A stretch of DNA of 15,209 nt from a virus, in IMG/VR virus record IMGVR_UViG_3300035698_016869, one strand, 5' to 3'. Each line of letters opens with the position of its first letter. Position 1 is the first letter of the stretch. Below the pieces are notes generated by a model. The model was not told the origin of the DNA. It worked only from the letters and a program-made list of their open reading frames with translations, and did not search any database. The position numbers and the translations under genes were made by a program. This document shows positions 1,204-1,588 of this stretch, piece by piece.

Positions 1204-1307
1204 TCGGCCCATCAATGATAGGCCAGGGTCCTCTGAAACAGAATCTCGTTTTCAAGAAAGTTGAGCATTCGCTCCGCTACCTGAATCATAGTGTATGGAG
1301 ATTTATT

Positions 1308-1381
1308 ACCGAAGACCCGAGTTCAAGTCTCGGCGCCCCCTCCAACCCTATGGGGGCGTGGTCCAACGGCAAGACGTCGGT
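1308..1381 (+). tRNA. Circularly permuted tRNA-like gene B. The 3' half is 1308-1344 (ACCGA, AGAC, T-arm CCGAG-TTCAAGT-CTCGG, acceptor 3' strand CGCCCCC, discriminator T, encoded CCA). The linker is 1345-1351. The 5' half is 1352-1381 (acceptor GGGGGCG, TG, D-arm GTCC-AACGGCA-AGAC, G26, anticodon-stem 5' strand TCGGT). Anticodon undetermined.
   Basis: Perfect 7-bp acceptor pairing GGGGGCG/CGCCCCC in permuted order. Perfect 5-bp T-stem with a TTCAAGT loop. Perfect 5-bp anticodon stem TCGGT/ACCGA. The architecture matches element A, including a linker ending in CTAT. Confidence 0.5.
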
Positions 1382-1588
1382 ACTCAGAGTTGACCCGTGC
1401 CGAAAGTCGTCGGGTAGAGAAAATCGGAGCACCTAAGAGAACCCTGGAGATGGGCATAAGCTCCGGGGTTTTCGCCTATCTGGGATCTGACGTCGTGCCA
1501 GACAATGAGCCCGGAGCCCGCCGCGCAGCGGCGAGGCTCACTGAGAAGAGCCCAAGAAACTATTTCCGTGATTTTGTGTCAAGTGTCT

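Follow-up and report, generated by a model that had tools for sequence, protein, structure and literature searches.

The viral record IMGVR_UViG_3300035698_016869 of IMG/VR comprises 15,209 nucleotides (nt), and we refer to this whole stretch of DNA as the window. It is phage-like, with dense genes on the + strand and a GC content of ~57%, and it encodes a 244-amino-acid (aa) protein of the DUF7873 family (positions 319 to 1053, + strand; Pfam PF25283, E 6e-74). Between this gene and one for a protein resembling the major vault protein (MVP; 1676 to 4315) is an RNA region (1054 to 1675) that contains two paralogous tRNA-like elements, A (1101 to 1247) and B (1271 to 1431), both on the + strand and with the DUF7873 gene as their conserved upstream partner. 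Element B, the subject of this analysis, had been described in the original prediction, made from the sequence alone, as a tRNA-like gene in which the 3' half precedes the 5' half. We find that each of the two elements is a cloverleaf in permuted order whose "anticodon" stem runs on into a paired stalk of three helices, P3, P2, and P1, with conserved internal loops. The earlier interpretation is only partly right, because B has no anticodon loop to re-join.

Architecture of element B

Read base for base, the 3' half of B consists of ACCGA (1308 to 1312), the variable region AGAC (1313 to 1316), the T arm CCGAG-TTCAAGT-CTCGG (1317 to 1333), the acceptor strand CGCCCCC (1334 to 1340), the discriminator T1341, and an encoded CCA (1342 to 1344). 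The linker ACCCTAT (1345 to 1351) leads to the 5' half, in which the acceptor strand GGGGGCG (1352 to 1358) is followed by T8, G9, the D arm GTCC-AACGGCA-AGAC (1361 to 1375), and G26 (G1376), together spanning 1359 to 1376, and then by TCGGT (1377 to 1381). The acceptor helix is paired at 7/7 positions, the T stem at 5/5, and the anticodon stem at 5/5. All of this is as originally described, and the order of T arm, closed acceptor helix, D arm, and anticodon-like stem at 1308 to 1381 is that of a circularly permuted tRNA. The anticodon-like stem gains a sixth pair, T1307-A1382, beyond the five reported, its 3' strand being (T)ACCGA (1307 to 1312) and its 5' strand TCGGT(A) (1377 to 1382). The TCGGT that the two elements were said to share is found in A at 1199 to 1203. 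Across B elements, the T stem (with the variable region, 1313 to 1333) is 99.6-99.9% paired and covaries at 4/5 pairs, all 7 pairs of the acceptor hairpin (1334 to 1358) covary, and the D stem covaries as well, with CG in 24 and UA in 20 cases at one pair, for example. A site for RNase P is predicted between T1351 and G1352.

In a strict scan of the window for a T-loop motif, T stem 5/5, acceptor hairpin 7/7, D stem of at least 3 base pairs (bp), and anticodon stem 5/5, element B was the sole match, and 300 dinucleotide-preserving shuffles scanned on both strands gave none. ARAGORN called no tRNA in the native order of the window. On the re-joined halves it called a tRNA at almost any junction, so these calls show merely that the three arms are intact. 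At the curated threshold, Rfam returned a single match, tRNA (33.5 bits, 1177 to 1341). It is chimeric, fusing the 5' half of A to the 3' half of B, and contains three acceptor mismatches and an insert of 103 nt. B itself is not the contiguous cloverleaf with a matching acceptor that defines a canonical tRNA (RF00005). Decayed tandem tRNA remnants, or an intron-containing tRNA corresponding to the Rfam match, would account for the joining of the two halves and for the presence of the phage module in tRNA clusters, but we find this explanation scarcely credible. Across loci the chimeric acceptor pairs poorly (mode 4/7), compared to 7/7 for the self-acceptor of B in 68/72 distinct loci, and conservation and covariation across phyla exclude pseudogenes. 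As this match warns, chimeric "intron-containing tRNAs" that span two neighbouring elements of this kind can be reported by tRNA finders and by the Rfam tRNA model.

The leader (1271 to 1307) and trailer (1382 to 1430) of B pair with each other to form the stalk. In the outermost helix, P1, GCTCCG (1271 to 1276) pairs with CGGAGC (1425 to 1430), matching the outer limits of 1271 and 1431 that had been assigned to the element. P2 is formed by CTACCTGA (1277 to 1284) and TCGGGTAG (1410 to 1417), and P3 by GTATGG (1293 to 1298) and CCGTGC (1395 to 1400), both as predicted by RNAalifold from a MAFFT alignment of 46 diverse B regions (A3). The core pairs of P2 are >90% paired with many compensatory types in A3 and in covariance-model alignments, and P3 is paired in 86-90% of cells with compensatory changes at every pair. 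Several segments of the stalk are unpaired. AUCA (1285 to 1288; family consensus AUCGA) falls in nearly invariant columns of alignments A3 and A4. CTCAGAG TTGAC (1383 to 1394) comprises a string resembling an anticodon loop, C-U-CAG-A-G, followed by a conserved CUGA-type motif. In the same alignments, A3 and A4, CGAAAGTCG (1401 to 1409) is the local form of the family motif YUUAAACG(C)CG. The bulge AGAAAAT (1418 to 1424) and the P1 3' strand (together 1418 to 1430) are identical in the related locus L001, in which a 32-nt trailer block of B is also identical. The unpaired motifs that recur family-wide are AUCGA after P2, CUGA, and YUUAAACG before the P2 3' strand. Folded as a single sequence, B has a minimum free energy (MFE) of -61.5 kcal/mol (z -2.8), and the fold gives P1, P2, and the acceptor hairpin.

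Conservation and covariation at DUF7873 loci

DUF7873 genes are widespread. At least 212 viral stretches in IMG/VR and at least 585 stretches in a species-level bacterial genome collection encode a relative, and among the matches listed the bacterial carriers are mostly Streptomyces and other actinomycetes, Acidobacteria, and Abditibacteria. We retrieved ~160 DUF7873 loci, 80 from IMG/VR and 80 from species genomes; retrieval was independent of the RNA, because it was by protein profile only. These fetched loci, six contig loci, and the window made up the 167 sequences scanned for RNA elements. At least one permuted element was present on the same strand within 700 nt of the DUF7873 stop codon in 159/167, and two or more were present in 113/167. 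The T arms begin at a median of 99 and 241 nt past the stop codon.

Among loci for which DNA was available, the closest DUF7873 relatives of the window are L001, L002, and L003 (68% identity) and L007 (56%), all with both permuted elements at the same downstream distance. Relative to the window, the B elements of these loci show compensatory changes in the acceptor helix (G-C to A-T), the T stem (C-G to T-A), and the anticodon stem (two double changes). The same is true of P2 (CTACC/GGTAG to CGCCTC/GAGGCG) and of P1. Comparison of A and B across homologous loci had been proposed as a check on the prediction, and it revealed compensatory changes in all stems. The claim that two such elements are no coincidence thus holds, in that they are kept as a pair and every stem shows compensatory changes.

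Covariation extends well beyond the closest relatives. RNAalifold on A3 recovered the T arm, the 7-bp acceptor hairpin, the D stem, P2, and P3, with double compensatory changes at 28/29 pairs of the structure. With P1 added, 91% of cells were standard-paired, compared to 62% when shuffled and ~40% when slid, and the covariation score was 0.77, compared to 0.23 and 0.12-0.15, respectively; none of 500 shuffles reached the observed values. Four MAFFT columns of P1 were 87% paired and contained compensatory changes. In a covariance-model alignment of 141 distinct rows, P2 was 87% paired, P3 90%, and the tRNA arms 93-100%, with covariation of 0.50 compared to 0.13. The covariation of P2 and P3 is independent evidence, because these helices were not used in choosing sequences. 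For the T, acceptor, and D stems only covariation counts, because the scanner required these stems. In a structure-aware parse, the anticodon stem was 5/5 in 77/113 B elements compared to 14/274 random controls, with 88% of cells paired compared to 42% when partners were shuffled, and the sixth pair was retained in 82% of B elements.

A covariance model built from 41 B regions, R1, had full-length matches at 89/99 and 59/60 DUF7873 loci (148/159), roughly half of them outside the seed. The B element of the window scores 97.0 bits but is a seed member. Full-length matches were also found in the cultured phages Gordonia GodonK (105.6 bits), Rhodococcus NiceHouse (98 bits), and Pseudanabaena Pam2 (58 bits). 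The GenBank phages that encode a homolog of DUF7873 include Gordonia phages GodonK and Phendrix, Rhodococcus phage NiceHouse, Arthrobacter and Pseudanabaena phages, Ralstonia phage phiRSL1, and Rhizobium, Vibrio, Klebsiella, and Serratia phages, and no mycobacteriophages. In GodonK and NiceHouse the DUF7873 gene sits within a tRNA gene array. The interval of ~500 nt that corresponds to the RNA pair (5735 to 6235 in GodonK, L167, MK620899; 5732 to 6266 in NiceHouse, L168, MT521992) is without an annotated RNA gene. The RNA itself is at 5864 to 6134 of L167, on the complement of MK620899, and at 5906 to 6211 of L168. A small hypothetical open reading frame (ORF), gene 151, runs on the opposite strand of the GodonK interval and is probably spurious, and in NiceHouse a gene for a band-7-like membrane protein is found two genes further on. 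Rfam searched at threshold over the RNA region of 20 related loci returned no family. In the literature searched, we found no paper that mentions DUF7873 or PF25283, and a large survey of phage structured RNAs does not include this motif.

Element A shares the plan of B. Its closing helix, GGACCC (1112 to 1117) with GGGTCC (1226 to 1231), covaries, reading AGGACC/GGTCCT in L001 and CTGTCC/GGACAG in L007. Within this helix, read directly from the sequence, are TCCGA (1126 to 1130), a T arm (1136 to 1152), CCCCGGC (1153 to 1159), ACCT with the linker (1160 to 1173), GCCGGGG (1174 to 1180), a D arm (1183 to 1197), and the TCGGT noted above. A matches the B model R1 over its full length with 53.4 bits. 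In many other loci A has a tRNA-Leu-like D arm and an A73 discriminator (TG GCGGAATTGGCAGACGC), and in L001 and L007 its T stem contains a bulged base. When the whole region was aligned for 61 non-redundant loci, the same elements appeared together with an outer helix around A, so A and B are best read as domains of one ~420-nt RNA.

The 3' end of this RNA is probably a hairpin with a U tract (1441 to 1472), in which ACCCTGGAG and CTCCGGGGT enclose the 11-nt loop ATGGGCATAAG and are followed by TTTT; it is found in the same place in most loci, with a covarying stem. A simple promoter and terminator scan of the window found no promoter, and it misses this hairpin because the loop of 11 nt exceeds 8 nt. 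The loop (AUGGGCAUAAG; GAUGGNNA in the family) is conserved beyond the need of a plain terminator. The RNA contains three to four short strings that resemble CUNAGA(CU) or AAGCUGAA, upstream of A (1085 to 1105), in the spacer (1232 to 1270), and after the anticodon-like stem of B (1383 to 1389), and related loci have them at the corresponding positions. They could be repeated sites of protein binding or what remains of anticodon loops. The RNA elements share sequence with two mechanically derived ORFs on the + strand, 1188 to 1436 (82 aa) and 1291 to 1614 (107 aa), which a gene caller could annotate although they are almost certainly not genes.

The question of an anticodon loop

The original prediction considered a junction of the two halves in an anticodon loop and, speculatively, CAG as the anticodon in that case. 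The flanks of B do not support such a junction. They pair into P1, P2, and P3 rather than forming a loop or a disposable intron, and these are long helices with large conserved internal loops. With the best fixed junction, both U33 and a purine at 37 are obtained in 36% of 83 distinct B elements (23% for A), and the re-joined B elements do not yield a canonical 7-nt anticodon loop of consistent identity among orthologues. A local anticodon hairpin, TCGGT-ACUCAGA-GUUGA, was also considered and rejected: it needs three G-U pairs and C33 and is unconserved.

At the same time, a string of the form Y-U-NNN-R follows the 5' anticodon-stem strand at an offset of 0-2 in 62% of B elements, compared to 12% at random positions. 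In A elements it occurs in 19%, compared to the same 12%. The triplets of the B strings are UCA (16), CAG (11), UAG (5), CAA (5), and AAG (5), and the window reads C-U-CAG-A-G. The proposed CAG thus sits in a real but degenerate anticodon-loop-like string, the register and triplet of which vary among B elements. The string looks like the vestige of an anticodon loop, which would put the evolutionary break point probably at position 38/39. A decoding role is opposed by this variability, by the U or G discriminator, by the variable region of 3-5 nt, by the lack of the string in A, and by the bulged T stem of A in L001 and L007. The earlier remark that the short variable arm conflicts with a leucine identity is borne out, and a discriminator of U or G rather than A likewise argues against a working tRNA-Leu.

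These observations bear directly on the possibility that B is a true permuted tRNA gene. The stalk would then be excised, the ends ligated into a circle, for example by RtcB, and the acceptor opened by RNase P and 3' processing, giving a working tRNA with a CAG anticodon. Like the permuted tRNA genes known from Cyanidioschyzon merolae, Thermofilum pendens, and some green algae, B has its 3' half upstream and its 5' half downstream, a short linker that connects the acceptor strands, and a leader and trailer that pair beside the anticodon stem. This identical topology, the 7-bp acceptor with an encoded CCA and a U at position -1, the acceptance of re-joined halves by ARAGORN, and the enrichment of Y-U-NNN-R in B, where 29/55 triplets are Leu anticodons, are all in keeping with such a gene, and the invariant Asp, His, and Lys of DUF7873 could form an active site. 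We nevertheless consider it distinctly unlikely. P2 and P3 covary and the internal loops of the stalk are conserved, unlike a discarded spacer; no fixed junction restores U33 and R37 in >36% of B elements; triplet and register vary among orthologues (UCA, CAG, UAG, CAA, AAG); the discriminator and the 3-5-nt variable region misfit tRNA-Leu; and A does not share the string (19% compared to 12%) and has a bulged T stem in two loci. The known permuted tRNA genes give bulge-helix-bulge precursors that are cut by a splicing endonuclease before circle ligation, whereas the host lineages of B are bacterial, its stalk is conserved and covarying, and no consistent anticodon loop can be restored. The bulge-helix-bulge splicing endonuclease (EndA) is not known from bacteria or their phages, nor is any bacterial or phage enzyme for the cut that would excise the stalk, which also counts against a permuted tRNA gene.

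A more specific version of this proposal is that bacteria and phages do mature permuted tRNA genes, with DUF7873 cutting both strands of the stalk beside the anticodon-loop-like string, an RtcB-type ligase closing the loop, and RNase P and 3' processing opening the acceptor. We give this scheme very little credence. If it were true, the tRNAs produced would be non-standard, combining NAG or CAA (Leu-type) or UCA anticodons with bodies not of the Leu type, and they could bring about recoding or suppression in the course of infection.

A probable tRNA mimic beside DUF7873

We think it probable that B is no tRNA gene at all and is instead a tRNA-shaped domain, the second of two, in a structured non-coding RNA (~1060 to 1472) directly after DUF7873 that acts as a tRNA mimic in a ribonucleoprotein. 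The closest precedent is YrlA (RF02553). YrlA RNAs are Y RNAs bound by Ro60, with an effector module like a circularly permuted tRNA with a closed acceptor, and the YrlA of M. smegmatis, the one with a 7-bp acceptor, is both cleaved by RNase P and extended by CCA in vivo (PMC4201824; bioRxiv 10.1101/312249). According to its sequence and stem covariation, B has the same module order of T arm, acceptor-like stem-loop, and D arm. In YrlA, a closing stem made of distal 5' and 3' sequences continues into the protein-binding stalk, and a comparable stalk is predicted for B. Both kinds of RNA often occur in pairs beside their own protein gene. They differ in that the partner gene of A and B is DUF7873 rather than a TROVE protein, that the stalk of B has three helices and the motifs AUCGA, CUGA, and YUUAAACG instead of GNCGAAN0-1G near the 5' end, that both RNAs of the DUF7873 pair carry a tRNA-like head, and that the 7-bp acceptor is the rule in DUF7873 RNAs and the exception in YrlA.

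Given this modular plan, A and B could be ordinary YrlA, Y RNAs bound by a Ro60/Rsr protein encoded elsewhere in the genome. In a permissive Rfam scan, A aligned to the YrlA model over all 114 positions. The score was 31 bits (E 1e-4) compared to a cut-off of 69, B had no YrlA match in that scan, and none of the 20 related loci matched at threshold. YrlA as delimited by Chen et al. 2014 lies within ~4 kb of a Ro60/TROVE gene on the same strand, a setting that is not found here. No TROVE/Ro60 domain was detected in the 20 window ORFs scanned, in the Pfam tables of the L001-L006 flanks (four contig neighbourhoods), or in the annotated flanks of GodonK and NiceHouse, and the GenBank phages with DUF7873 exclude the Ro60-encoding mycobacteriophages. 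One DUF7873 contig does encode a TROVE protein 4.3 kb upstream, but that gene has its own adjacent YrlA-like RNAs and the DUF7873 pair is separate. The motif GNCGAAN0-1G is also unconserved in the DUF7873-linked family. Taken together, we regard an ordinary YrlA as unlikely. A candidate for this motif in the window, GCCGAAAG (1400 to 1407), is in the 3' trailer of B, is absent from the 5' end, and is kept only in the window's own clade (L001, L007). We dropped the idea of a Ro60 site because the wider alignment gives YUUAAACG as the family consensus, of which GCCGAAAG is a local variant.

The contig just mentioned (L169), a 101-kb metagenomic phage-like contig, has its TROVE/Ro60 gene at 3866 to 5656 and two YrlA-like RNAs directly upstream (2975 to 3349; 42.7 and 49.5 bits), and its DUF7873 gene with its own RNA pair forms a separate unit ~7 kb downstream. 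A single genome therefore carries permuted tRNA mimics of both kinds. With its new protein partner and its new stalk, the DUF7873-linked element is a widespread and apparently undescribed permuted tRNA mimic of the YrlA type. Bacterial circularly permuted tRNA mimics have so far been known essentially as the Ro60-bound YrlA, and the finding points to a second, separate class, distinguished by its DUF7873 partner, two tRNA-like heads per locus, a tRNA-grade 7-bp acceptor often with an encoded CCA, and a wide distribution.

How the mimic might be processed is suggested by its acceptor. An encoded N-CCA is present in 32% of B elements and in 36% of A elements, compared to a chance expectation of 1.6%, and U occupies position -1 in 91/113 B elements. 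The full 7-bp acceptor helix, the frequent N-CCA, and the preference for U at -1 suggest that the acceptor loop is probably opened. RNase P would cut this loop after U1351, and the 3' side would be trimmed or CCA-repaired to CCA1344. This would leave a nicked RNA of two pieces that the stalk keeps together and whose CCA end is free, and the RNA would act as a tRNA mimic within a ribonucleoprotein, most likely with DUF7873. The particle could serve as a decoy or sensor for tRNA-directed enzymes or as a platform for tRNA processing or repair. We speculate that a look-alike of a nicked tRNA could interact with the enzymes or sensors that target cleaved tRNAs. An engineered permuted tRNA-Leu(UAG), a mimic of a nicked tRNA, is a good ligand of RtcR (PMC10159003). 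Like B, the engineered RNA has a loop-closed acceptor and its ends in the anticodon region, and the string after the anticodon stem of B often reads as a tRNA-Leu anticodon loop. It differs in being artificial, with ends in the loop that carry a 2',3'-cyclic phosphate, whereas the ends of B are extended and base-paired. B may be a natural nicked tRNA with a free CCA end, and the RNA is a candidate participant in the conflict between phage and host over the cleavage and repair of tRNAs.

Alternatively, the RNA could be aminoacylated and non-decoding, a two-piece tRNA-like RNA similar to two-piece tmRNA or to an amino-acid donor for a transferase. In two-piece tmRNA (permuted ssrA, RF04321), the T arm, acceptor 3' strand, and CCA are likewise upstream of the acceptor 5' strand, and excision of the intervening segment leaves two base-paired pieces. 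The CCA and discriminator are conserved within each element type, and A has a tRNA-Leu-like D arm with A73 in many loci. The E. coli LeuRS does not read the anticodon. Despite this resemblance, aminoacylation of this kind seems very improbable to us. The match of B to the permuted tmRNA model is weak (17 bits, cut-off 47), ARAGORN finds no tmRNA, and B has a full D arm and an anticodon-like stem, with G3 pairing with C70 rather than forming the G3-U70 pair of the tRNA-Ala-like tmRNA acceptor. Neither a tag frame nor pseudoknots were apparent on reading the sequence, which was not searched specifically for either, and the acceptor sequence varies freely among orthologues. Ribozyme cores suggested by eye in the leader and trailer, hammerhead or hairpin (CUGAAUCA, CGAAAG, AGAGAAA), were rejected, as the cores mismatch and the permissive Rfam scan lists none.

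Several points weigh against the interpretation as a tRNA mimic. The enriched anticodon-loop-like string after the stem is left unexplained by mimicry. The T, acceptor, and D stems were scanner criteria, so their high pairing percentages are partly circular; their covariation is not. P1 (43% paired) and the anticodon stem (67%) do poorly in the covariance-model alignment, in which they are unmodelled and badly registered, and are well supported only in the structure-aware parse and the MAFFT alignment. The MFE fold misses the T arm, D arm, and P3, and the comparative structure, at -54.0 kcal/mol, is 7.5 kcal/mol above it. Gene order is the one link between the RNA and DUF7873, and three structure searches with a model of the protein (AF2, pLDDT 87) gave no informative match.

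Other searches with DUF7873 were also negative. A profile search against PDB sequences returned nothing, PHROGs, NCBIfam, and PADLOC have no entry for it or for the MVP-like protein, a single-sequence search with the window protein in IMG/VR found nothing, and an exact look-up of that protein gave no record. An exact 24-mer from B was not found in IMG/VR, and blastn of 1060 to 1680 against GenBank phages gave no match. In 22 homologs, the residues D85, N88, K116, D132, W137, K158, and the block T169-D-K-H172-P-A-Q175 are invariant, a pattern that suggests a catalytic or ligand-binding site. The linked RNA provides a testable handle on this protein family. In phage tRNA arrays, the ~500 nt of the DUF7873-adjacent module are at present left blank by annotators or filled with spurious small ORFs.

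The MVP-like gene (+ strand) directly after the RNA pair encodes 879 aa with an MVP shoulder (E 1e-22) and vault repeat domains. In eukaryotes, vaults contain small RNAs to which a TROVE protein binds, and the RNA pair could by analogy belong to a phage vault-like particle built from this protein. We rejected this highly improbable role because adjacency to an MVP-like gene recurs in 0/171 other DUF7873 loci (tblastn), closest relatives included; L001-L003 keep the RNAs without MVP. For the same reason, the MVP-like gene looks like an insertion specific to this phage. Further downstream, among small ORFs without assigned function, is an HNH endonuclease gene (6589 to 7194, + strand; phrog_1872, E 5e-24), and other HNH genes lie beside the DUF7873 and tRNA regions of GodonK and locus L170. 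A perfect hairpin of 10 bp, CTGGAGTGGC-TTCG-GTCGCTCCAG, is present at the start of the window (42 to 66, + strand), before the DUF7873 gene.

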